Part shown: in pieces, positions 1 to 9,618 of the stretch
How positions within the stretch are numbered: position 1 is the stretch's first letter
Layout: every line of letters starts with the position of its first letter
From: a virus
Taxonomy: Duplodnaviria > Heunggongvirae > Uroviricota > Caudoviricetes
Virus record (IMG/VR): IMGVR_UViG_2734482579_000011
Strand: one strand, 5' to 3'
Length of the DNA stretch: 9,618 bases
Notes under the pieces: model-generated
The model's database searches: none
Told to the model about the DNA's origin: nothing
Seen by the model: the letters and a program-made list of their open reading frames with translations, nothing else
Position numbers and translations under genes: made by a program

Positions 1-35
1 GAACAGGAGGGACAGCTGATAGAAACAGAAGCCAC
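1..35 (-). CDS. insA: IS1 InsA, N-terminal fragment (GTG start at 35..33, continues past the window edge)
   Basis: Minus-strand translation from the GTG at 35 gives ASVSISCPSC..., the known InsA N-terminus; truncated by the window, not by mutation. Confidence 0.8.
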   Translation of the reverse strand, partial: MASVSISCPSC

Positions 36-90
36 TGGAGCACCTCAAAAACACCATCATACACTAAATCAGTAAGTTGGCAGCATCACC
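1..90 (-). mobile_element. IS1 insertion sequence, partial (first 90 bp including the left terminal inverted repeat; body continues beyond the window start)
   Basis: Reverse complement of 1..90 reads GGTGATGCTGCCAACTTACTGATTTAGTG...CCAGTGGCTTCTGTTTCTATCAGCTGTCCCTCCTGTTC, which I recognise as the IS1 left end; the terminal IR is at 68..90 and the element boundary is 90/91. Confidence 0.92.
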
Positions 91-242
91 CCGCCACAGA
101 ACAATTATTGCTTTTGCCGTTGATGACAATAAAGTTTTTATCGCAGGCGTATACCACGGTGGGCAAATCTATGAAACCGATTTTTTATCCAGTGCACCGT
201 AAAACCCCCATCCTTCAGGGCGTGGCGGATATCAAACTTTGG

Positions 243-1325
243 TCATTTTCTCTGGCTGATCTTTACCGGATAACCATCCCGAAGATCAATTAAGTGCTCC
301 GGTTCAGAAGCAAACCATGCATAAGATCCCCACGCCAATTCTGGTATTGCCTTTTTAAAAGGCAGAGCACTTCTGTCCATAAATGCCGTAAGGAATGCAA
401 GATTTTTCTCGCTGAACCCAGCGTCAATAGCCAAATGAGTGAGAGTAACTTTTCGTTCCCTGTTTATAGGCCCATCTGTCGCAACTACTTCAGTGAAAAC
501 TACAAGCATGTCCGAACCCGTTCGGTCCTCTCCCAAATCAATCAAAATAATATCTGGAAGTGCTTTTGAGGCATCAATATTCAGCCCCAATGCTTTTGCC
601 AATACATCATCCTGAGCAACAACTTTATTCCCGGATTCAGACAACCAGAGCACAGTTGGATTCTTAAGAAAATTAGGAGCAAAAACTTCGATGACGGCCT
701 TAGCTATTGTACTTGACGGGCCCGGAGCTAAAGTTCTCTTCTCTCCATTTGGGAAAGTGACGACTACGGCATCAGCAGCAATCACTGCCCCTGATTTCAA
801 TAAACGCAACCTAGCAAGAGCGGCTTTGTTCAAATGATTTTCTTGCCAGGAACTTATTGCACTCAGCAGCGAATCTCCTTCAAGCCCGGCATCAAAGAGT
901 GCTGCAAAAGAGCGATTCAAACTGTAACGAGGACGAGAGGATGTGGTGGGTATACCTTTACGCTCAACAATTGCATTGCAAGGTATTAGGCCATTTTTTA
1001 TAGTTTCATCACGTATTGGCTCACGCGTATTTTCCGCATACCATGCATCAGCAGGCCTTATCTTTTGTTTAGAGAAAGTCATCTTTACCCAGCTTTCTCT
1101 GGACGCATCATCAGTAAGAGCAGCCTGCGAATCTCCCATACTTACAACCTGGCTGGGCCTTATCCATCGCCCCAGCCCCTCAACCGCACCAGCATAAAAC
1201 ATGACAAAAATTGTTTTTGCAGCTATTTCCCGAATTAAATATCCACGATTCTCAGTCCCTTCAGGGAAAATTAATTGTAATCTTTCCCGGATAACATTCA
1301 ATGGGGGAACAACAGGCAGATTCAT
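243..1325 (-). CDS. Putative type II restriction endonuclease (360 aa), partner of the upstream methyltransferase; possibly BsuBI/PstI-like, family unverified
   Basis: ATG at 1325..1323 overlaps the methyltransferase TGA (1324..1322) as ATGA, so the two are co-directional and translationally coupled. Contains LPDIILIDLGED...VVFTEVV, a possible degenerate PD-(D/E)XK core. Lower GC than the phage genes. Family is a recollection-based guess. Confidence 0.6.
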   Translation of the reverse strand: MNLPVVPPLNVIRERLQLIFPEGTENRGYLIREIAAKTIFVMFYAGAVEGLGRWIRPSQVVSMGDSQAALTDDASRESWVKMTFSKQKIRPADAWYAENTREPIRDETIKNGLIPCNAIVERKGIPTTSSRPRYSLNRSFAALFDAGLEGDSLLSAISSWQENHLNKAALARLRLLKSGAVIAADAVVVTFPNGEKRTLAPGPSSTIAKAVIEVFAPNFLKNPTVLWLSESGNKVVAQDDVLAKALGLNIDASKALPDIILIDLGEDRTGSDMLVVFTEVVATDGPINRERKVTLTHLAIDAGFSEKNLAFLTAFMDRSALPFKKAIPELAWGSYAWFASEPEHLIDLRDGYPVKISQRK

Positions 1326-3154
1326 GCAATCATCACTCCATAGAAACCAGCGATAGTTCTCTCAATAATCCGTCTGTGGACGCCAGCATCAATTAACGAT
1401 TGAATCTCCATCACCTGCTCCAGAGAAGGCAACGGGATTGAATTCAATTCATAGGCCGAAACAGCAACACTTCCGCTTATACACCTGAACGCCCGATCGA
1501 CAACATGCGAATTAAGTAGCATATCAATAACATCAGGGCGAACCGCAGAGAACAATCCGTTTGAATATACAATATTAATATGGTTTTCAACTACTACGCC
1601 ACCAGTTTCATCTATAAATCCCTGAGGTAAAATTGCCGCTAAAATCCTTCTGTCCTGTTCCTTCGATGTTGTCCGCTGAACAAGCACACATTCAGATTTT
1701 GTCACAAGGAAACCCTGTTGTGGGGTTATATCGATATAGGGAACATGATTTTTTCTGTCTGCACTAAAACGAAAACCAGCTGAAGTTATTGATTCCGCCC
1801 AGACTAATGGGTAGCTATTTTTTCCTTTCGTCGTACGCAACTGCGACTTAAATCGATTCCAGACTAACTGACCTGTAGAGACTGAGTATCCCAGATCAGC
1901 TAAACGCGTAGACATCTGTTTTAATACATTAAGAAAACAGGCATCATCTTTAACGCGTGGCAAAAGCCACGTTGCTCCACCTTTTTCTATATCAACATTA
2001 CCTATTTTCTCAATTTTTGCTTTGTTCAACCCCTTAGGGACAAGTGAGGATACCTGGGCCCGAACTTTATGTTCTCCCGCCTTGAATGCTGTCAACATTG
2101 TTTCCTGGAGAACATCGTCAAAGACCCCATCCCTGTCAGTGACGAAATCAAGGGCATACGGAGTAGTTTTTTCGGTCAAAAGGGTTCGCAGCGCGGTGAA
2201 ATACTGCCCACCAAGAAAAGAAGTTGGCGTAAGAAATGCAATAACTCCTGTTTTCTCTTTAACCATGCGAACAGCTAAGTCGGTGAACAATCCATATAGA
2301 TTTGCATGACCAAATAACGAACGAGAATATTTTTCTCTCGTTTTAATATCGAGAGTGACACGTCCGTAAGGCGGATTCCCTACCACAAGATCATAACCAG
2401 AAAATTTATCTTGCTGAAGCGCATCAGCAACAATAATTGTATCTTCAGGCAATCTACGTTTTACCTTTACACATAGTGGCATTAGTACAGATTCGAGCAA
2501 TACCAAACTCATCCAAGCCGCAAATGGATCGATCTCTATCCCCTTTAAACGACGACTGATTCTCCTCAACATCCATTCAGGGGAAGACCCCTTGTCTTTT
2601 TTTAACATTCGAATGGCTACTGGTGCCAAAAATGCACCGCCACCACACGCAGGATCAATAACCGATGCATGAGAAAAATCAACACCAGACTTTTCAGCCA
2701 GGTCCAAGAGACGCGCTACCAAAGGTGGGGGGGTATAGTAAGCCCCCAATTCCGAACGGTAAGCGGATGGCAGCATTACCGTATAAATTGACCCAATCAG
2801 ATATCCAGCGTCCTCCGCCGGAAATTGAGCAATAAGCTCACCTGTTCGTTCAGCGAGCTCGCGTGCATCACATGGAATGTCTTCTATGTAAACAGTGTGC
2901 GGTACTGCCCTCATTTTAATGCTGCTTTTTTGCTTTTTTGCAAGGGTATCCCAATATGCAGCTACGATGCTGAAGCAGTATGAGCGGGCATGCATCAACC
3001 TTGACTGCCCGGTTTTGTAATTGCCCGCATAACCTTTGGCCATGGCTTTACAAGTTTGATATCTTTCCAGATTAGAAAACTCATTATCTGTAAAAAAATC
3101 AAAATGTTGCACATTCATAATGTAAAATCCTAATGTATCAAACATGCGGGCCAT
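1322..3154 (-). CDS. Gamma-class N6-adenine DNA methyltransferase (610 aa), Eco57I/TaqI-like catalytic domain with a C-terminal target-recognition region
   Basis: Motif order in the translation: GAYYTPPPLVARLL (motif X), VIDPACGGGAFLAPV (motif I, AdoMet binding), VVGNPPYGR (motif IV, NPPY). About 330 aa follow as a presumptive TRD. Alternative in-frame ATGs at 3145 and 3118; the start is uncertain. Confidence 0.9.
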   Translation of the reverse strand: MARMFDTLGFYIMNVQHFDFFTDNEFSNLERYQTCKAMAKGYAGNYKTGQSRLMHARSYCFSIVAAYWDTLAKKQKSSIKMRAVPHTVYIEDIPCDARELAERTGELIAQFPAEDAGYLIGSIYTVMLPSAYRSELGAYYTPPPLVARLLDLAEKSGVDFSHASVIDPACGGGAFLAPVAIRMLKKDKGSSPEWMLRRISRRLKGIEIDPFAAWMSLVLLESVLMPLCVKVKRRLPEDTIIVADALQQDKFSGYDLVVGNPPYGRVTLDIKTREKYSRSLFGHANLYGLFTDLAVRMVKEKTGVIAFLTPTSFLGGQYFTALRTLLTEKTTPYALDFVTDRDGVFDDVLQETMLTAFKAGEHKVRAQVSSLVPKGLNKAKIEKIGNVDIEKGGATWLLPRVKDDACFLNVLKQMSTRLADLGYSVSTGQLVWNRFKSQLRTTKGKNSYPLVWAESITSAGFRFSADRKNHVPYIDITPQQGFLVTKSECVLVQRTTSKEQDRRILAAILPQGFIDETGGVVVENHINIVYSNGLFSAVRPDVIDMLLNSHVVDRAFRCISGSVAVSAYELNSIPLPSLEQVMEIQSLIDAGVHRRIIERTIAGFYGVMIA

Positions 3155-3368
3155 AACATCTCATGGTGGCGCATAGCAAACTGGCCCGAAGAATATCACG
3201 CACCAAGTCGATCTCATAACCCGTTATGACAATAAATCTTTGTAGCTGAACTCACTTGGTGATTTGTCAATCATTCCTGGCCTCCAGTTCGTCCTGAATC
3301 TCTTTATCGAGTTCACCGTATTTGTTAGTCCTCATCACTCACGACTTGACTTCCAGAAATAACCTTGA

Positions 3369-3725
3369 TTATTCGGGGCTATATTTTGTCACCCTGCGTA
3401 TCCGCGCTTTCGCATTACGCTCAATCTGGATTAGCTTTTCTATATTTTTTCGCCTTTCCCGCTCCTCCTGGCGCAAGAGCCTTACATCATCTGCCAGTCT
3501 GGTTTCTCTTTTCGCCACAGAGAGCATCCAGTCAAATGGCTCCACAACTGCACCGCAAATTTTACAGCGGACCTGACGCTCTTTTTCGTCAACCCGGACA
3601 GAAGCGTGATGGCAATATGGTCTTTCCGATGGCTCATAAAGAAAATTAACCTGATTACGAGGGTTATCCTCTTTTACCGGAAATAAAACAATATTGCTTA
3701 ACTCATCTTCTGGTTTTATTTCCAT
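3369..3725 (-). CDS. Hypothetical phage early protein (118 aa) with a putative zinc-ribbon (C-H-H...C-x2-C) and a basic, coiled-coil-like C-terminus
   Basis: ATG at 3725..3723 is preceded by a strong SD (minus strand AAGGAGAGGAGC then ATG). The track ORF extends to a GTG at 3782, but the internal ATG with SD is preferred. Cys/His cluster PYCHHASV...CKICGAV. Confidence 0.65.
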   Translation of the reverse strand: MEIKPEDELSNIVLFPVKEDNPRNQVNFLYEPSERPYCHHASVRVDEKERQVRCKICGAVVEPFDWMLSVAKRETRLADDVRLLRQEERERRKNIEKLIQIERNAKARIRRVTKYSPE

Positions 3726-3782
3726 GCTCCTCTCCTTTGATGCGAATGCCAGCGGTAATTGAAGCCTGATAGCTAATTTCAC

Positions 3783-4205
3783 TCACAGTACCGCCTCCTG
3801 AAAATCACCCTGATAGAAAGCCGGTACACGCTGCATAACTTCACTCTTCCGGCACTCGCGACAGATTATGTTCTGATGTCTGTCGTAGCGGCGTATTTCT
3901 CCGTCCGGTAATGACCAGATAAGGTCCGGATCAACCACAGATGGTTTCTTCAGCTTTGCCCTCGAGAGTTTTTTGCGGGCGTTTTGCCAGTCCTTACGAG
4001 CCTGTTCAGACGGGAATAACCCGTAGCCAGAGTTGTATACATCCCCACTGGCAACCAGCTCTCTGGCGAGAACGCTTATTAAATATCTTGTCGCCCCGGT
4101 TTTAGCTTCCAGTTGTCGTAACGTCTCGCGCCCACTCTGGCGTACGAGTTCAACAACCTGCCCCTTAATTTTTTCCCGCTCTTCCTGTGTAAATACTTTT
4201 GCCAT
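3783..4205 (-). CDS. Hypothetical phage early protein (140 aa), HTH-like N-terminus, CxxC near the C-terminus
   Basis: ATG at 4205..4203 (MAKVFTQEE...); the track ORF begins 5 codons upstream at a TTG. Ends ...NIICRECRKSEV.... Co-directional and tightly packed with flanking genes. Confidence 0.65.
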   Translation of the reverse strand: MAKVFTQEEREKIKGQVVELVRQSGRETLRQLEAKTGATRYLISVLARELVASGDVYNSGYGLFPSEQARKDWQNARKKLSRAKLKKPSVVDPDLIWSLPDGEIRRYDRHQNIICRECRKSEVMQRVPAFYQGDFQEAVL

Positions 4206-4220
4206 AAGCGCCCCCGGCAA

Positions 4221-4946
4221 TCACTTTTCCGACACAATACGACCGGAGGAATCGACAATCTGTCGAACAATATCCCGGTGCTTGTTCAGCTCCCGCAACG
4301 CGGCGCAGACACGCTCCCACTTCTGGACATGACTTTTCGCCCGACGCAGTTCGCGGTTTGCCATATGCAGCGATGGTAAAACCAGGTCATCCGCTTGCGT
4401 TTCGGTGAACGATGGCAACGACTGCACAATGTCCGCCACAGTTTCTGTTTTAATTTCTTCCTGTGTTGCAGCTTCCTGTACCGGTAACGCAACACCTGCT
4501 GGCTGAGGAAAGACTTTACCATCCGTTTCCGCTATGGATGCGGCTTTCGGCTCTGCCGGTAAATCAGCGCCCGGTATGCAGTACCGAAATTTACCGCCCT
4601 GATTCACGCGAATCAGACGCCCTTTGCTGATTGCCATGGCCAGCGATGAATTCGCCCGGCGGGAGGTAATCCCGAACATCAGTGCCAGCTCATCCGCCGT
4701 TTGTGGGCCATGTTGTTCAATCGCCTCAGTCAGCATTTGCGCTGTCACTTTCGGTACCGGTGACACTGGTTCACTTTCACCAGCCTGAATCAGCCACCAC
4801 ATCGAACCCTTGTTATCCGCTTCACCACGGCGCTTCAGTTTCCACAGTTCGTTGACCGCATCTTCACGGCTGATTCCAAGGCGGGACGCCACCACATGTG
4901 AAGAGGCTCTTTTCAGTGCTTTCAGTGCGTCAAATACAGTTTCCAT
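4221..4946 (-). CDS. Hypothetical phage protein (241 aa) with two predicted winged-helix-like segments; resembles DUF1627-type proteins found after replication genes in enterobacterial prophages (recollection)
   Basis: ATG at 4946..4944 with SD GGAGGA 7 nt upstream, 21 nt after the DnaC-like TAA stop. Similar segments ...[23 protein letters not shown]... and ...[25 protein letters not shown].... Confidence 0.7.
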
Positions 4947-4967
4947 TAAAACATCCTCCAACAAAAA

Positions 4968-5509
4968 TTACTTCACAACTCCCGGAAAGCTGACATTTGA
5001 ACGCCAGCTATCCCAGTTAAACGTCACCCACCGACAACCGTTCATGGTCATGCGGTCCATAATCCTCTCACCAAGAAGCGTGCTCATTGCGGCATGATTC
5101 AGGTTTGTTAACATCCCGACACTGCACAGTGATGCTGTCCGGCGATCAATTATCTGGTGCAATACCACCTGCTCGTTTTTCGTCTCCCGCTGAATGCCTA
5201 TTTCATCCAGGACCAGCAAATCAACCCCGCAAAGCTCCTGTAAAAATTTTTCACCGGATTTGCCGTTGTCGTAGCTGTCATGCAACACGCTCATGACATC
5301 AGACTCGGTGACGATAATCACGCTGCGCCCCTTCGCCATCAGCCGGTTACCCATCGCCGCTGCAAGGTGATTTTTCCCGGTGCCGGTTTTACCGCTGAAC
5401 ACAAAATTCGTGCACCCGGTCATCAGTTCGTCAGCTATGGATTTGGCCTGGCTCAGCGCGTATTTTTGCCCGTCGTTCTGCACCTGATAATTCGCAAACG
5501 AGCATTTGC
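4968..5509 (-). CDS. DnaC-like helicase loader / IstB-like AAA+ ATPase (phage replication protein), 5' end lost in the N gap
   Basis: Walker A FVFSGKTGTGKNHLAAA and Walker B DLLVLDEIG in the translation; the ORF is open up to the N run at 5510, so the true start lies in or beyond the gap. Confidence 0.85.
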
Positions 5510-5751
5510 NNNNNNNNNNNNNNNNNNNNNNNNNNNNNNNNNNNNNNNNNNNNNNNNNNNNNNNNNNNNNNNNNNNNNNNNNNNNNNNNNNNNNNNNNNN
5601 NNNNNNNNNNNNNNNNNNNNNNNNNNNNNNNNNNNNNNNNNNNNNNNNNNNNNNNNNNNNNNNNNNNNNNNNNNNNNNNNNNNNNNNNNNNNNNNNNNNN
5701 NNNNNNNNNNNNNNNNNNNNNNNNNNNNNNNNNNNNNNNNNNNNNNNNNNN
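5510..5751. other. Run of 242 N (assembly gap or masked sequence)
   Basis: Directly visible. It interrupts the junction between the initiator and the DnaC-like gene; true length and content unknown. Confidence 0.99.
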
Positions 5752-6739
5752 TTACCGGGAGCAACCAGGGGTTTTCAAAATTCCGGTCCGGCCCAAAAAA
5801 CGTCGTCGCTCGCTGAACAAATTCCGTTCCCGCTTTCCCGGTCGCCGCCAGGTATCTCGCGTAACGCCTCACACCATCCAGCATGGTCTCTGGTGGCACC
5901 CCCTCGCGCAATCTGGCCTTCCAGGCACTGAATGCGGATTTCTTCGGGTTTGCCCCGGCACGCAACGGGTATTCCCGCCAGACCTGTTCGAACACATCCG
6001 GATAATCCACTCGTCCCACAGGCTGCCCGGTGTTTTCCGGGGCTACCCGATCGGCTTCCCGCTGAATGGCGGAATCGGCTTCAGGCTGCTGCAGTTGGAG
6101 TGATTGCTCCGGCCTTGCGGTCATCACCTGCTGCACAGCGCCCGAATCGGCTTTCAGCGCATACGCTGAATCGGCTTCCGGTGTCGAGCCTGCTGGCTGA
6201 CCAGGATTGACGGTCTGAACATCCCCTGCCTGGTTCGTGGCGTTTTTTACGCCATGGACCATAGTGTTTTGATCTTCTTTATCTGTATCTTTATCTGTAT
6301 CTGTCGTGACTCGTCGTGACATGTGCGTGACATTTCGTGACGCGCCGTGACAATCGCCATTTTGTTCCCGCTTTCTTTCCCTCTCTCGCTGCGCCCTCTT
6401 GCGCTCTGCAGGAGATTTTGCGGTTTGCGAAATATTGCCGTTGTCCTCTTTAAGCACCTGGCGTTTTTCCCATCCAGTGATTAAATCACCATCAAGTACC
6501 CGCCCCTGCATCGTCTGCAAAATTGAATCAATTACCTCTTCTGTCACGTCGAGCGCACTTGCCAAATCTTCTGTCGTGACATCAATGTGACCTCGCGTGA
6601 CATTTCGTGACGCGCTCACCAGGAGGTGGATATACACTGCCATCACTGTTGCAATTGGCTGCCCTGACACCCTGGCAATTGTTCGCCACTTAGGGTCATT
6701 TGGCATGTCATGCCATAATCTGAGCCAGGCGTTAGCCAT
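5752..6739 (-). CDS. Phage replication initiation / replisome-organiser protein (O-like; YdaU-type context), 3' end lost in the N gap
   Basis: ATG at 6739..6737 with SD-like AGAGGTGA upstream (GTG alternative at 6745). Directly upstream of the DnaC-like gene, as in lambdoid replication modules. Acidic/TDKD linker and internal iterons. The track ORF's tail beyond the gap (to 5453) is a frame artefact. Confidence 0.7.
6277..6304. repeat. Tandem 12-bp repeat (CTTTATCTGTAT x2 plus partial) in an AT-rich stretch immediately beside the iterons
   Basis: Directly visible; encodes the TDKDTDKE acidic linker on the minus strand. It lies 3' of the iterons in the gene's direction, like the AT-rich region of lambda ori. 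Confidence 0.6.
6305..6351. repeat. Iteron-like array: five CGTGAC hexamers at 10-11 bp phasing inside the initiator gene (candidate phage ori)
   Basis: CGTGAC begins at 6305, 6315, 6326, 6336 and 6346. On the coding strand the hexamers fall in different reading frames, so this is a DNA-level periodicity and not a peptide repeat. Confidence 0.55.
6543..6615. repeat. Second iteron-like cluster (GTCACG/CGTGAC units at about 10 bp phasing) containing an exact 21-bp copy of part of the first array
   Basis: GTCACG at 6543; CGTGAC at 6575, 6596 and 6606; TGTGAC at 6586. The 21-mer GCGTGACATTTCGTGACGCGC occurs at 6325..6345 and again at 6595..6615. Confidence 0.5.
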
Positions 6740-6810
6740 ACTCACCTCTTCTGATACCGAATCTTTTTACTCACGAGTTGCCGGGAGCGATTCGATATGG
6801 CTATTGTCAG

Positions 6811-7236
6811 TCAATGTACTGCCACAGCATTTCCTGCCGGGCCACCACGGTTCATCTGATTGAAACCGGCGATTGCCACTGCGACAAAATCATCAGCGTC
6901 TCTCACCAGTCGTTCATGCGTCTCCACCAGTTCCCGAAAATAAGCTGAACTGTGGCTGCGCATTCGAGCCACCAGCGGAGGTGGCATTGCCCTTTCGATC
7001 GCAGGTAACAACGCCTGAATTTTTTCAACAGCGTCAGGGGTGTCTTTATCCAGCCAACGGAAAATCTTTTGGGTGTTGAGATAAAGCGTGTTGTGCTTGC
7101 TGTCGTTATGCAGAACCGGAAACGTCATTCCCAGTTCGAAATAAACCCTGGTTATTTCAGCTGCCGGAACTTTTTCACCGTCCGGATGCGCCCAGGCTTT
7201 CATCGCCATGCGGATGTGTTCATGCTTGATTTTCAT
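6811..7236 (-). CDS. ydaT: YdaT-like protein (141 aa), reported as a CII-like regulator in Rac/CP-933P-type prophages
   Basis: ATG at 7236..7234 overlaps the upstream gene's TGA (ATGA). Size and position immediately after the Cro-like gene match the ydaS-ydaT arrangement; homology is recollection-based. Confidence 0.55.
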   Translation of the reverse strand: MKIKHEHIRMAMKAWAHPDGEKVPAAEITRVYFELGMTFPVLHNDSKHNTLYLNTQKIFRWLDKDTPDAVEKIQALLPAIERAMPPPLVARMRSHSSAYFRELVETHERLVRDADDFVAVAIAGFNQMNRGGPAGNAVAVH

Positions 7237-7496
7237 GAATCAACCCCCGCCGATGGTTGTGTGTTAGCCTGAAACTCAGCAGGCAAGCCGTCAGTTGGGT
7301 TGGGGTAGGTTTTACTGTCAATCTCATGTGGGGTCACCACCCATCCCGTTGCTTCACACCAACGTAATATTTTTTCTCCTGTAAGTTTTGCACGCCCCGT
7401 TATAACGTGGCTGACCATCCCTTGGGATGCGCCAACAATCTCAGCAAATGAACTCTGGGTTATATGAAAATGATGCAAATATTCTCCAAGATTCAT
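7233..7496 (-). CDS. ydaS: Cro-like / YdaS-family HTH DNA-binding protein (87 aa)
   Basis: HTH-like segment ITQSSFAEIVGASQGMVSHVITGRAKLTGEKILRWCEATG; divergent from the repressor gene across an operator-rich intergenic region. Start taken as ATG at 7496 (the track ORF begins at a TTG at 7523). Confidence 0.7.
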   Translation of the reverse strand: MNLGEYLHHFHITQSSFAEIVGASQGMVSHVITGRAKLTGEKILRWCEATGWVVTPHEIDSKTYPNPTDGLPAEFQANTQPSAGVDS

Positions 7497-7532
7497 AATC
7501 CGCCCTATGTGATGTGTTACCAATGCATAATT

Positions 7533-7595
7533 AATAGCACTGTTATTTTTAAAAGTAAATAGTGATACTATTTCAAAGTGATTAGCAATCTTATT
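7533..7595. promoter_or_regulatory. OR-like operator cluster with divergent promoters between the cro-like and repressor genes
   Basis: Three 15-bp imperfect palindromes about 24 bp apart: AATAGCACTGTTATT (7533..7547), AATAGTGATACTATT (7558..7572), and weaker ATTAGCAATCTTATT (7581..7595). Candidate minus-strand promoter (-35 at 7554..7559, -10 at 7531..7536) and plus-strand promoter (-35 TTCAAA 7572..7577, -10 TAGAAT 7595..7600) overlap them. Confidence 0.55.
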
Positions 7596-7607
7596 AGAAT
7601 TGGATGT

Positions 7608-8108
7608 ATGAAAAGAAAATCATTGTCAGACACCGACCTCAACGCCGCCAGAAGACTGAAAGAAATCTGGATGGCAAAGAAATCTCAGTTGGGATTGACT
7701 CAGGAACGTGCGGCGGAAATTATGGGGTTTTCAACACAAGGGGCGGTAAGTCACTACCTAAATGGTCAAACCCCACTAAACCTTGAGGCTGTTCTAAAGT
7801 TTGCTGGCTTACTGAAAGTTCCCCCTGAGTCAATCAGGCCAGACATGGTAGATTTGCTGCAAATTGCAAGGATGTATTGTCGAGAACCACAGCAAGATAA
7901 CATAGTCGCATTACCAGCAGACACAGAACAAACAGAGGATGAACTACCGTTTGCCGTAGAGCCGATGGAACGAGATTTAATCCATACGTTCAGAGCTTTT
8001 CCGAAAGAAGATCAAGAACACATGCTTCAGGAGATGAAAGATAAAAAAGAATCAATGGATCGTACGGTTGCGCGGTGGTTAGCTGCACAAAAAGGCCGTC
8101 GCGCCTAA
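7608..8108 (+). CDS. paaR: CI-like HTH repressor without a peptidase domain (166 aa); probable PaaR-type regulator of the downstream toxin-antitoxin pair and candidate prophage immunity repressor
   Basis: HTH segment LGLTQERAAEIMGFSTQGAVSHYLNGQTP; ATG at 7608 (the track ORF starts at a GTG at 7578). First gene of a three-gene plus-strand operon; symbol assigned by recollection of the CP-933P paaR2-paaA2-parE2 locus. Confidence 0.7.
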   Translation: MKRKSLSDTDLNAARRLKEIWMAKKSQLGLTQERAAEIMGFSTQGAVSHYLNGQTPLNLEAVLKFAGLLKVPPESIRPDMVDLLQIARMYCREPQQDNIVALPADTEQTEDELPFAVEPMERDLIHTFRAFPKEDQEHMLQEMKDKKESMDRTVARWLAAQKGRRA

Positions 8109-8127
8109 ATCAGAGGAGATATGTAAA

Positions 8128-8322
8128 ATGAGTACAGTCCTTTCCCCAATGGTTTCAGAATTTGAGACAGTTGAGCAAGAAAATAGTTACAACGAATGGC
8201 TGCGGGCCAAAGTAGCAGCAAGCCTCGCGGATCCCCGCCCGGCGATTCCGCATGATGAGGTAATGGCGGAAATGGAACAAATTATTGCCCAAATTGCTGC
8301 TGCAACTCACAGAGGTGAATAA
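8128..8322 (+). CDS. paaA: Small antitoxin (64 aa) of a ParE-family toxin-antitoxin pair, PaaA-like
   Basis: SD AGGAGA 9 nt upstream; its TAA stop overlaps the toxin ATG (TAATG); 19-bp gap after the repressor gene implies co-transcription. Confidence 0.7.
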   Translation: MSTVLSPMVSEFETVEQENSYNEWLRAKVAASLADPRPAIPHDEVMAEMEQIIAQIAAATHRGE

Positions 8323-8612
8323 TGTTACCCGTTTTATGGCTACCATCTGCTCGTGATGATTTGCGCCAGATCGTAGCCTACATAGCTAAAGAAAATCCCG
8401 CGGCAGCACGCAGAATGAAAATTCGAATTGAAACATCCGTTTTGCCGCTCACAGAGCATCCTTACCTGTATCCTCCAAGCGAGCGAGTTCTTGGTCTTCG
8501 TGAAATTGTAACTCATCCTAACTACATCATCCTTTACCGAGTAACAGCATCAAGCATAGAAGTAGTAAATATTGTGCATTCTCGAAGACAGTATCCAGGC
8601 AAAAACAGTTAA
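8322..8612 (+). CDS. parE: ParE/RelE-superfamily toxin (96 aa)
   Basis: C-terminal signature ...NYIILYRVTASSIEVVNIVHSRRQ typical of ParE/RelE toxins; overlaps the antitoxin stop by 1 nt; an intrinsic terminator follows. Confidence 0.8.
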   Translation: MLPVLWLPSARDDLRQIVAYIAKENPAAARRMKIRIETSVLPLTEHPYLYPPSERVLGLREIVTHPNYIILYRVTASSIEVVNIVHSRRQYPGKNS

Positions 8613-8628
8613 TTATTCCCGCCGACAG

Positions 8629-8654
8629 AACCACCTTAGGGTGGTTTTTTCTTG
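8629..8654 (+). terminator. Rho-independent terminator of the repressor-antitoxin-toxin operon
   Basis: Perfect 7-bp stem AACCACC / GGTGGTT with a TTAG loop, followed by TTTTTTCTT. Confidence 0.8.
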
Positions 8655-8668
8655 CCCCAACAAAAAAC

Positions 8669-8711
8669 AATAGCGATGCTATTTACATCAAAAAAAAATA
8701 ATGATGCTATT
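8669..8711. promoter_or_regulatory. OL-like operator pair carrying the same palindrome consensus as the OR cluster; probable early-left promoter region
   Basis: AATAGCGATGCTATT (8669..8683) and AATAATGATGCTATT (8697..8711), 28 bp centre to centre, matching the OR sites (consensus roughly AATAGY-N3-RCTATT). They sit just after the operon terminator and upstream of the next plus-strand genes. Confidence 0.55.
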
Positions 8712-8892
8712 GTTTCAGGCGTCAACCCACCCCGCCCCACAGAATGCAGGGCAATACTTCGAGTTACCAGACAGTGGTCAGGGGTTAAGTAGCCAGCCCG
8801 AGGCGTAAGAACATGACGGCAGGGTTCAATCTTTAACTATGCAGCAGGTTTTTTGTTCCGCCACCCCGGCGTTAAGGGGAAATGAGGTCAGC

Positions 8893-9045
8893 ATGGATAC
8901 TATCGATCTTGGCAACAACGAATCTCTGGTGTGCGGCGTGTTCCCTAACCAGGATGGAACGTTTACCGCCATGACGTATACCAAAAGCAAAACGTTTAAA
9001 ACCGAATCTGGCGCGCGTTGCTGGTTAGCCAGAAACACTGACTGA
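8893..9045 (+). CDS. Small hypothetical early-left protein (50 aa), possibly of the YdfA/YdaF small-protein type (unverified)
   Basis: ATG at 8893 with GAGG 5 nt upstream; the track ORF's longer form from 8839 has no SD. Confidence 0.45.
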   Translation: MDTIDLGNNESLVCGVFPNQDGTFTAMTYTKSKTFKTESGARCWLARNTD

Positions 9046-9056
9046 TGAGGCTGACG

Positions 9057-9422
9057 ATGGAATTTAAAGATTTACCGTCTGATGTACAGAAAACAGCAGC
9101 TCATACATTGCATTCTGTGCTGCGAGAAATCGGGAAAGATATTGCAAGCGAGCCAGCAAAAGATCTGGCCCGGAAAATCAAGACCGCTTTCGTTGAGCTT
9201 TATAATGTTGGCACTGACTCTGAAACTGTCGAGACCAAGACCGTAAGTTCACCAATATTCTCACTTGAGCCAAGCGTATTATCAGGTGAAATATGCACCG
9301 AGATTTCCAGCGAACTGCTTCCGGTAATACGAGAAGCAATTCGCCGTCGCGGTTTGGATGGAAGTTATGATCATGACGTTCTGCAAGTTCTCAGGACAAT
9401 GGTGACTTCACTGGGGATTTGA
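9057..9422 (+). CDS. Hypothetical early-left protein (121 aa)
   Basis: ATG at 9057 with GAGG 7 nt upstream; the alternative ATG at 9045 overlaps the previous stop but lacks an SD. Confidence 0.55.
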   Translation: MEFKDLPSDVQKTAAHTLHSVLREIGKDIASEPAKDLARKIKTAFVELYNVGTDSETVETKTVSSPIFSLEPSVLSGEICTEISSELLPVIREAIRRRGLDGSYDHDVLQVLRTMVTSLGI

Positions 9423-9554
9423 TCCCTGCGTCCTCTAAGCTTTTGATATAGCGGTCCTCCAAGAAGCGGTAAATTTTGTCGAAATCATCTTTTCCCTCTG
9501 GTTTATTCAGAGGATTACAGGACCCGTAAGTAGCGGCATACATTTCAACCGTTT

Positions 9555-9618
9555 GGTAATGACTCCAACTTATTGATAGTGTTTTATGTTCAGATAATGC
9601 CCGATGACTTTGTCATGC
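9555..9618 (-). mobile_element. IS1 insertion sequence, partial (right terminal inverted repeat and the 3' end of insB; body continues beyond the window end)
   Basis: 9555..9618 is the reverse complement of the IS1 right end GCATGACAAAGTCATCGGGCATTATCTGAACATAAAACACTATCAATAAGTTGGAGTCATTACC. The terminal IR starts at 9555; orientation is the same as the left copy. Confidence 0.92.
9570..9618 (-). CDS. insB: IS1 InsB, C-terminal fragment (stop at 9572..9570, 5' end beyond the window)
   Basis: Minus-strand translation ends ...KVIGHYLNIKHYQ then stop, the known InsB C-terminus. Confidence 0.8.
   Translation of the reverse strand, partial: HDKVIGHYLNIKHYQ

Follow-up and report, generated by a model that had tools for sequence, protein, structure and literature searches.

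In Tn9, two IS1 copies in direct orientation flank a segment, and at the R100/NR1 r-determinant and at argF (Tn2901) of Escherichia coli K-12, direct IS1 copies recombine and excise or amplify the segment. For Shigella, where cryptic prophages and genes decay through IS activity, IS copies are described in general terms as interrupting genes and mediating deletions between homologous copies (Hawkey et al. 2020, PMC7373316). IS1 is the dominant IS of S. sonnei.

Here we examine a stretch of phage DNA of 9,618 nt (the window, meaning the whole of the DNA analysed), in which a block of 9,464 bp lies between two IS1 ends. The block occupies the same locus as the Qin cryptic prophage of K-12 (ydfI/ydfJ to the ynf operon) and its genes follow the same order there in the dicA/dicC-ydfA-dicB arm, whereas its cargo differs from that of K-12 Qin by a PstI-family restriction-modification (RM) pair, a PaaA2-ParE pair and a ParD-ParE remnant. 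It resembles Tn9 and other IS1 composite transposons in having a segment flanked by two intact IS1 copies in direct repeat, but differs from them in lacking an outer duplication, in having one copy with its own duplication, in occurring in a single context, and in consisting of prophage DNA in situ. With the r-determinant and argF it shares both geometry and expected RecA-dependent behaviour. We read the window as an early/immunity segment that has survived from a lambdoid prophage at the Qin locus of Shigella sonnei, bounded by two independent IS1 copies, and assign this reading a probability of about 0.9. What the locus records is ordinary IS-driven genome decay of a prophage, and not a mobile unit; no description of the specific block or its junction series was found in the literature searched.

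IS1 ends and genomic setting

Positions 1-90 of the window are the last 90 nt, and positions 9555-9618 the first 64 nt, of the same 768-bp IS1 element in the same orientation, each at 100% identity. The left end (copy a, 1..90, minus strand) is the insA-proximal part and is 100% identical to positions 912-1001 of record L008, while the right end (copy b, 9555..9618, minus strand) is the insB-distal part and is 100% identical to positions 10511-10574 of that record. The 23-bp inverted repeat on the insA side is present, as its reverse complement, at positions 68-90, and the other repeat at 9555-9577, the two agreeing at 18 of 23 positions. The transposase genes of both copies therefore lie on the minus strand, and the copies are direct repeats enclosing 91-9554. 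The window itself holds only these IS1 tips (90 and 64 nt), and full-length copies, flanks and species are read from near-identical genomes. The block is present at 99.9-100% identity in twelve long chromosome records of S. sonnei type, mostly complete genomes, and all 12 carry a full-length, intact 768-bp IS1 on each side of it, which bears out the original prediction that two IS1 copies of the same orientation bracket the module. The flanking 768-bp repeats show 99.6-100% identity.

The elements have the features of IS1, including a length of 768 bp, imperfect inverted repeats of 23 bp, insA and insB frames that are both open, an A6C -1 frameshift site (TTAAAAAAC) at position 305, and, at copy b and at a third copy, c, a target duplication of the kind (8-9 bp) expected of a simple insertion. 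The called IS1 genes match Pfam PF03811, PF12759 and PF03400 (InsA and DDE_Tnp_IS1 domains), and RefSeq annotates the matching DNA in E. coli as 'IS1-like element IS1A/IS1B family transposase'.

All long S. sonnei-type records carry the block at one and the same place, the Qin locus between ydfI/ydfJ and the ynf operon, with ydfI-ydfZ-rspR-ydfG on its left flank and ynfF-ynfG-ynfH-dmsD-clcB on its right. Two of these, FORC_011 (CP010829) and UKMCC1015 (CP060117; record L007), are S. sonnei by paper, and the other ten are placed there because they are nearly identical. To the left, the next IS1 again has the same orientation and encloses 8.2 kb of ordinary core genes.

Gene content and prophage origin

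The module had been predicted to comprise an RM system, a replication module, an immunity switch and a toxin-antitoxin (TA) pair, with no integrase or late genes, and this description was correct. The window encodes a PstI-family RM pair, a replisome organiser with a DnaC-like loader, a cro-like/cI-like pair with YdaT, and a PaaA2-ParE pair; Pfam and gene calls revealed no integrase or late-gene domains in the window, and an Rfam scan of it gave no match.

Next to copy a lies the 3' remnant of a parE/relE-type toxin gene (92..202, plus strand; 36 codons and a stop), cut by the IS1 element. The remnant aligns with the end of an intact 103-aa ParE gene adjoining ParD in L001 and L017, and the parD antitoxin partner, together with everything further left, is deleted. 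A BsuBI/PstI-family type II restriction endonuclease of 360 aa follows (243..1325, minus strand; PF06616, E 9e-45; PF17728, E 1e-30; RefSeq annotation of L001) with its partner, an N6-adenine DNA methyltransferase of 610 aa (1322..3154, minus strand; PF07669, PF02384), whose homologue in L001 is annotated 'HsdM family class I SAM-dependent methyltransferase'. Further along the minus strand are genes for a hypothetical protein of 137 aa (3369..3782; 118 aa by some gene calls), which is called in relatives and has a sub-threshold zinc-ribbon match only, a DUF977 protein of 140 aa (3783..4205; PF06163, E 3e-30; gene calls in relatives), a DUF1627 (YdaW-like) protein of 241 aa (4221..4946; PF07789, E 4e-93), and the 3' part of a DnaC/IstB-like helicase-loader ATPase (4968..5509; PF01695, PF00308), whose full gene in relatives encodes 248 aa. 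The next stretch (5510..5751) is a run of 242 N, either a scaffold gap or a mask, and corresponds to 288 bp in relatives that span the loader/organiser gene boundary; it hides the 5' part of the loader and the 3' end of the organiser, which leaves the window with incomplete replication genes. Two open reading frames, 4968-5483 and 5453-6745, were rejected as artefacts of the N run. The phage replisome organiser, an O-like initiator (5752..6739, minus strand, 3' end hidden; 354 aa by gene calls in relatives), has a homologue in L001 annotated 'phage replisome organizer'.

The minus strand further encodes a YdaT-family protein of 141 aa in the cII position (6811..7236; PF06254) and a Cro-like HTH regulator of 87 aa (7233..7496), the latter recognised by position, gene calls and a sub-threshold HTH_3 match. 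On the plus strand are a cI/DicA-like HTH repressor of 166 aa (7608..8108; PF01381, E 9e-9), in which Pfam detected no S24 peptidase domain, a PaaA2-type antitoxin of 64 aa (8128..8322; PF21217, E 3e-23), a ParE-family toxin of 96 aa (8322..8612; PF05016, E 2e-17), a DUF1391 (YdfA-like) protein of 50 aa (8893..9045; PF07151 and gene calls), and a hypothetical protein of 125 aa without a Pfam match (9045..9422). The last feature before copy b is the 3' part of a 66-aa hypothetical ORF (9391..9554, minus strand), the first ~12 codons of which are cut off by the IS1 element; the ORF is intact across the empty site in L005 (10347-10547) and L009 (9338-9538).

Window positions 91-4058 and 5752-7248 are collinear, at 95-99% identity, with the prophage of E. 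coli FDAARGOS_943 (L001), which is intact. In intact relatives the left side carries Q, lysis and terminase genes, and the right side dicB, exonuclease, xis and int. With early, immunity and replication genes collinear with intact lambdoid prophages, no integrase or late-gene domains, and a position at the Qin locus, the block is a defective lambdoid prophage of the Qin/Rac type.

Left and right junctions

Copy a is flanked by different sequences (TGTTATATG-IS1-CCGCCACAG) and has no target duplication. The sequence on its outer side, 48 bp upstream of ydfI, belongs to the E. coli core and is present in 5,397 of 5,426 genomes; that on its inner side is the interior of parE, the gene that stands intact beside parD in the two relatives named above. 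Judged by these flanks, copy a is a deletion junction at which the ydfI-ydfJ intergenic region has been joined to the middle of the toxin gene. The IS1 of this intergenic hot spot is now fused to the middle of the prophage parE, and ydfJ has gone together with the attachment site and the entire late region; the route may have been an IS1 adjacent deletion or recombination with a second IS1 in parE, the two being indistinguishable. An IS1 inserted in parE with its own duplication, a possible precursor of this junction, was not found in E. coli, and the exact left-junction 40-mer had 0 matches in GTDB representative genomes.

The right junction has a different history. The 9-bp target of copy b, CAACCGTTT (9546..9554 in the window), is perfectly duplicated on both sides of the element in five genomes (L003, L007, L016, L019 and L020) and occurs once, as an empty site, in L002, L005 and L009. 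Because it has its own duplication and matching empty sites, copy b is an independent simple insertion into a small prophage ORF. The third IS1, copy c, lies 1.24 kb to the right of copy b and is likewise a simple insertion: in L007 it has TTTCCGGTT on either side, and L009 has that sequence a single time. A recombinant b x c junction, CAACCGTTT-IS1-TTTCCGGTT, is present in L006 and L014; the junction CAACCGTTT-IS1-CGACCCGTG, with CGACCCGTG inside ynfF, is present in L008, L013, L015, L018 and L021; and the intermediate junction TTTCCGGTT-IS1-CGACCCGTG was seen in L003. When SNP lineages are distinguished by positions 2534 and 7567, poly-A length and a SNP upstream of ydfI, the two b x c products fall in different lineages, indicating recurrence. 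The order of events at the right is transposition of copy b with its 9-bp duplication and later recombination between b and c in several lineages; deletions from there, as the junction sequences show, reached into ynfF, and in those genomes the prophage ends on the right in IS1.

In less-deleted genomes, prophage DNA (a Rha/ASH-type gene, dicB and ydfD) runs past the right IS1 as far as an IS3-family element, and only derived genomes, FORC_011 among them, have IS1 as the prophage's right-hand end. The proposal that IS1 had truncated the prophage on both sides consequently stands for the left, and for the right it applies to these derived genomes. Whether copy b of the source strain keeps its duplication or is fused to ynfF is not readable from the window. 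The locus offers a resolved example of stepwise prophage erosion by IS1, from insertions through repeated recombination between direct copies to deletion into ynfF.

Mobility, assembly and deletion of the block

The geometry of the bracket had been likened to that of a composite transposon or translocatable unit. Two intact, identical, directly oriented IS1 copies, with transposase frames and frameshift site intact, would suit an 11-kb Tn9-like IS1-block-IS1 element that arrived at the site as a unit, but the outer flanks of the pair are unlike (TGTTATATG versus CAACCGTTT or CGACCCGTG), and the proposed check on target duplications found that copy b keeps an intact 9-bp duplication of its own, with matching empty sites, while copy a has none. 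The block is, moreover, collinear with intact prophages at its native Qin locus, and it turned up in no second context: of 5,426 E. coli genomes, 72,556 plasmids and 50,697 phage records, none reaches 80% coverage of the window, plasmid and phage matches extend over 30% of it at most, and neither IS1 junction occurs in the 5,426 complete E. coli genomes. The few hits of the junction search with at least 80% coverage were discarded as chance extensions, at 88-89%, at unrelated IS1 sites. Two complete IS copies are present, whereas a sole outer duplication and a second context were not found; the block has not moved as a unit, and arrival as a transposon has next to no probability. S. sonnei 53G contains 165 IS1 copies in 4.99 Mb, and random placement was calculated to give ~22 adjacent direct IS1 pairs no more than 9.5 kb apart per genome. 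With ~165 copies, about 20 direct brackets of such size are therefore expected by chance in each S. sonnei genome, so that the geometry alone is no evidence of a composite transposon, and the bracket is not statistically remarkable. The window is probably the whole of a short-read draft scaffold ending at IS1 repeats. Draft assemblies break at the IS1 copies of the block, the gene for the 125-aa protein being found on contigs of 5-10 kb in 633 of 792 index blocks, and contig AAVEHV010000132 spans exactly window 95 to 9549; in IS-rich genomes, a short contig with one and the same IS at either end usually reflects assembly breaks around ordinary DNA. It could be argued that the bracket itself is an artefact, the scaffold ending in collapsed IS1 repeats whose true neighbours are not IS1, given that the window stops 90 and 64 nt into a repeat with ~165 copies per genome and contains an N gap typical of a draft scaffold. 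Both junctions, however, match the twelve long chromosome records base for base, with complete IS1 copies, and we regard such an artefact as highly improbable.

As for the suggestion that the directly oriented copies form a substrate for deletion, direct IS1 repeats do drive deletions within the lineage, where copy b recombined with copy c in both SNP lineages. By analogy, it is plausible that RecA could delete the 9.46-kb block through its two 768-bp direct repeats; IS1 x IS1 deletion of the r-determinant kind is documented for the adjacent 1.24-kb segment, while among the genomes examined, all retrieved through block proteins, neither loss of the whole block nor its excision, circle formation or amplification was observed. 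A further possibility, which we consider very unlikely, is the release of a circle of ~10.2 kb (block plus one IS1) by recombination between the two IS1 copies, in effect a latent lambda-dv-like plasmid or translocatable unit stabilised by two addiction systems and able to re-enter any of the ~165 IS1 copies. If true, the circle would carry an O-like organiser with origin, a DnaC-like loader, an immunity switch, the RM pair and the TA pair, and would re-enter IS1 copies by homologous recombination. Compatible with erosion of the prophage by independent IS1 copies, and adding a selective reason for persistence, is the doubtful idea that the block is retained between its IS1 copies by addiction modules (the PstI-family RM pair and PaaA2-ParE), deletants being killed. 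Adjacent segments between direct IS1 copies have disappeared more than once, by b x c recombination in two lineages and by deletions reaching ynfF, with the block kept throughout, and its RM and TA genes are present and full-length. The block's presence in every genome examined is, however, subject to ascertainment bias, as each genome was retrieved through block proteins and block-less genomes are invisible. Retention by addiction is also countered by S. sonnei UKMCC1015, in which a deletion of 1,847 bp takes the N-terminus of the methyltransferase and leaves the endonuclease ORF intact; this deletion suggests that disturbance of the RM pair may be survivable.

Chromosomal locus and gene content of the block

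Every genome compared was found by way of proteins encoded in the block, the DNA enclosed by the two IS1 copies (91-9554). No record in E. coli complete genomes, plasmids or phages covered at least 80% of the window; exact-protein look-ups placed the block in many assemblies, and the records named here include CP010829 (S. sonnei FORC_011; PMC5447701) and CP060117 (S. sonnei UKMCC1015). The block was found in a single, chromosomal context, with ydfI-ydfZ-rspR-ydfG-dcp on its left and ynfF-ynfG-ynfH-dmsD-clcB-mlc on its right, which in E. coli K-12 is where the Qin prophage resides. Intact relatives carry, to the left, ParD-ParE, DUF968, RusA, Q, tRNAs, lysis genes, and terminase (in L001, which is E. 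coli FDAARGOS_943, and in L017) and, to the right, dicB, ydfD, an exonuclease, xis, and int (in L001, L004, and L005). These genes beyond the block reveal what the remnant has lost.

Gene content was established from Pfam matches in the window and from how the corresponding genes are called and annotated in relatives. From left to right, the block encodes the 3' remnant of a parE-type toxin gene (92-202, + strand), a PstI/BsuBI-family endonuclease (243-1325, -) and its partner methyltransferase (1322-3154, -), a hypothetical gene, DUF977, and DUF1627 (3369-4946, -), the 3' part of a DnaC-like loader (4968-5509, -), the 5' part of a replisome organiser (5752-6739, -), YdaT (6811-7236, -), a cro-like regulator (7233-7496, -), a cI/DicA-like repressor (7608-8108, +), PaaA2-ParE (8128-8612, +), DUF1391 (ydfA-like; 8893-9045, +), and a 125-aa hypothetical protein (9045-9422, +). 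Neither an integrase nor morphogenesis genes were detected in the window by Pfam, gene calls, or relatives' annotation, which bears out the original prediction that integrase and late genes are missing; an Rfam scan of the window gave no match. Positions 5510-5751 consist of 242 N, against 288 bp in all relatives. This length mismatch suggests a scaffold gap rather than a mask. The N run obscures the DnaC-like gene at its 5' end and the replisome-organiser gene at its 3' end, and the two long ORFs called at 4968-5483 and 5453-6745 are consequently artefacts. A second toxin-antitoxin pair, ParD-ParE (103-aa toxin; L001 5538-6112), once adjoined the endonuclease gene; its antitoxin and first ~66 toxin codons were removed by the left IS1 (copy a), leaving 36 codons (92-202).

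Origins of the IS1 copies

IS1 sequence occupies both window tips: ATCAGTAAGTTGGCAGCATCACC terminates 1-90 (copy a) and GGTAATGACTCCAACTTATTGAT opens at 9555 (copy b). In 12 long chromosome records (window identity 99.9-100%) the tips are parts of complete 768-bp IS1 copies, with window 1-90 and 9555-9618 matching L008 912-1001 and 10511-10574, respectively. In the 768-bp element the insA and insB frames are open, the frameshift site is TTAAAAAAC, and the 23-bp inverted repeats agree at 18 of 23 positions; Pfam finds InsA and DDE_Tnp_IS1 domains in the IS1 genes called in relatives, and E. coli RefSeq annotation names the matching DNA IS1A/IS1B. Given that the transposase lies on the - strand in both copies, they are direct repeats around 91-9554 (9,464 bp), and the IS1 coordinates and shared orientation originally predicted are correct.

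Junction reading revealed CAACCGTTT on both sides of copy b in L003, L007 (UKMCC1015), L016, L019, and L020, and an empty site with a single CAACCGTTT in L002, L005, and L009. Copy b, which interrupts a 66-aa ORF, is thus an ordinary IS1 that inserted independently into prophage DNA. A third IS1 (copy c) sits 1,244 bp to the right, with its own target duplication TTTCCGGTT in L007; L009 lacks both copies, its copy-c site being empty. In L006 and L014, copies b and c have recombined, which produced the junction CAACCGTTT-IS1-TTTCCGGTT. The junction TTTCCGGTT-IS1-CGACCCGTG in L003 joins copy c to ynfF at codon ~449, with deletion of dicB, ydfD, an IS3-family element, and the 5' half of ynfF, while CAACCGTTT-IS1-CGACCCGTG is found in L008, L013, L015, L018, and L021. 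The genomes fall into two lineages that differ by SNPs at 2534, at 7567, and upstream of ydfI and in the length of the poly-A at 8690; since each has one b-c-type product, recombination occurred at least twice. Deletion between IS1 copies beside the block is therefore recurrent.

Copy a is a deletion junction. It is bordered by TGTTATATG and CCGCCACAG without a target duplication, its outer border lying between ydfI and ydfJ, 48 bp upstream of the former, and its inner border in the interior of parE. The junction may have arisen via adjacent deletion or via recombination with a lost IS1; a search of E. coli for a precursor IS1 within parE found none. The ydfI-ydfJ intergenic region is a suspected IS1 hot spot, with three independent, identically oriented insertion points within 14 bp (L008 217-233; L025 3078-3845; L026 3066-3833). 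Relative to the S. sonnei junction, which is one of the three, the others lie 7 bp right in E. coli G3/10 (duplication TGAATAAAA) and 6 bp left in E. coli 720632 (duplication TGTTTTG), and further E. coli genomes carry an IS1 nearby, within ydfJ. The next IS1 to the left of copy a is direct and 8.2 kb away (L013, window orientation, 90-858 and 9081-9848); it has borders TTCCGCCTG and TGAACGGAG and no target duplication.

Composite transposition, deletion, and chance

Direct IS1 copies surround a segment in Tn9, the R100 r-determinant, and the argF segment, and the bracket in the window resembles these in geometry. Unlike a Tn9-type composite transposon, however, it has neither of the defining features, an outer duplication and multiple contexts, and a composite transposon was rejected. 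Because the outer borders of copies a and b differ, composite transposition did not occur; the mobile unit originally read from the geometry is contradicted by these borders, by the separate CAACCGTTT duplication of copy b, and by the one context. Deletion or circularisation of the 9.46-kb block through its two 768-bp repeats would be possible too; neither was seen in the genomes compared, a set biased towards carriers of the block by the way it was retrieved. Deletion between copies a and b would be expected to leave GTTTTGTTATATG-IS1 followed by CAACCGTTTTATC, TTTCCGGTTTTATC, or CGACCCGTGATGG. A lambda-dv-like circle derived from the block is very improbable, and none of the PLSDB plasmids resembled one. 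Post-segregational killing by the restriction-modification pair and PaaA2-ParE is a possible selective reason for block retention, an idea weakened by UKMCC1015, where a 1,847-bp deletion removed the methyltransferase N-terminus and the endonuclease ORF was kept.

Under random placement, the 165 IS1 copies in the 4,988,504 bp of S. sonnei 53G are expected to yield ~22 adjacent direct pairs this close by chance (165 x (1 - exp(-9.46 x 165/4988.5)) x 0.5). The direct left-neighbour IS1 and copy a likewise enclose 8,222 bp of core genes starting at ydfI (ydfI, ydfZ, rspR, ydfG, dcp, and others). Drafts break at copies a and b: the 125-aa gene lies on 5-10 kb contigs in 633 of 792 index blocks, and contig AAVEHV010000132 corresponds precisely to window 95-9549 with an added IS91-family insertion. 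Based on the IS1 tips at both ends and the N gap, the window is most likely a draft scaffold ending at IS1. In broad terms, the case agrees with what is described for Shigella, where IS elements mediate gene loss and deletions (PMC7373316).

Variation within the block

The UKMCC1015 deletion (2734-4580) also took out the hypothetical 137-aa gene, all of DUF977, and part of DUF1627, and it raises doubt about the activity of the restriction-modification pair. Its left edge adjoins a G7 homopolymer (2727-2733) inside the methyltransferase gene; this tract is G6, a frameshift, in L015, which is likely a sequencing error given several other frameshifts in that assembly, but may reflect slippage. 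The intergenic poly-A between parE and the DUF1391 gene (8690-8698) varies in length, being A9 in the window, A8 in FORC_011-type and A7 in UKMCC1015-type sequences, and shorter in L009. One draft genome carries a ~1.7-kb element with an IS91-family Y2 transposase in ydaT (L011 6217-7902; window ~6946-6950). In L010 (1-9770), Mu-like tail and baseplate genes lie immediately left of the DUF1391 gene, joining at window ~8816, which suggests that a Mu-like prophage inserted into the block or that the block was rearranged. L022 is 100% identical over 95-5509 (the restriction-modification-to-DnaC half) and divergent over 5752-8723, with a different organiser and cro/cI pair and no PaaA2-ParE, indicating mosaic exchange whose breakpoint falls within the replication genes, in the stretch that the N run covers in the window.
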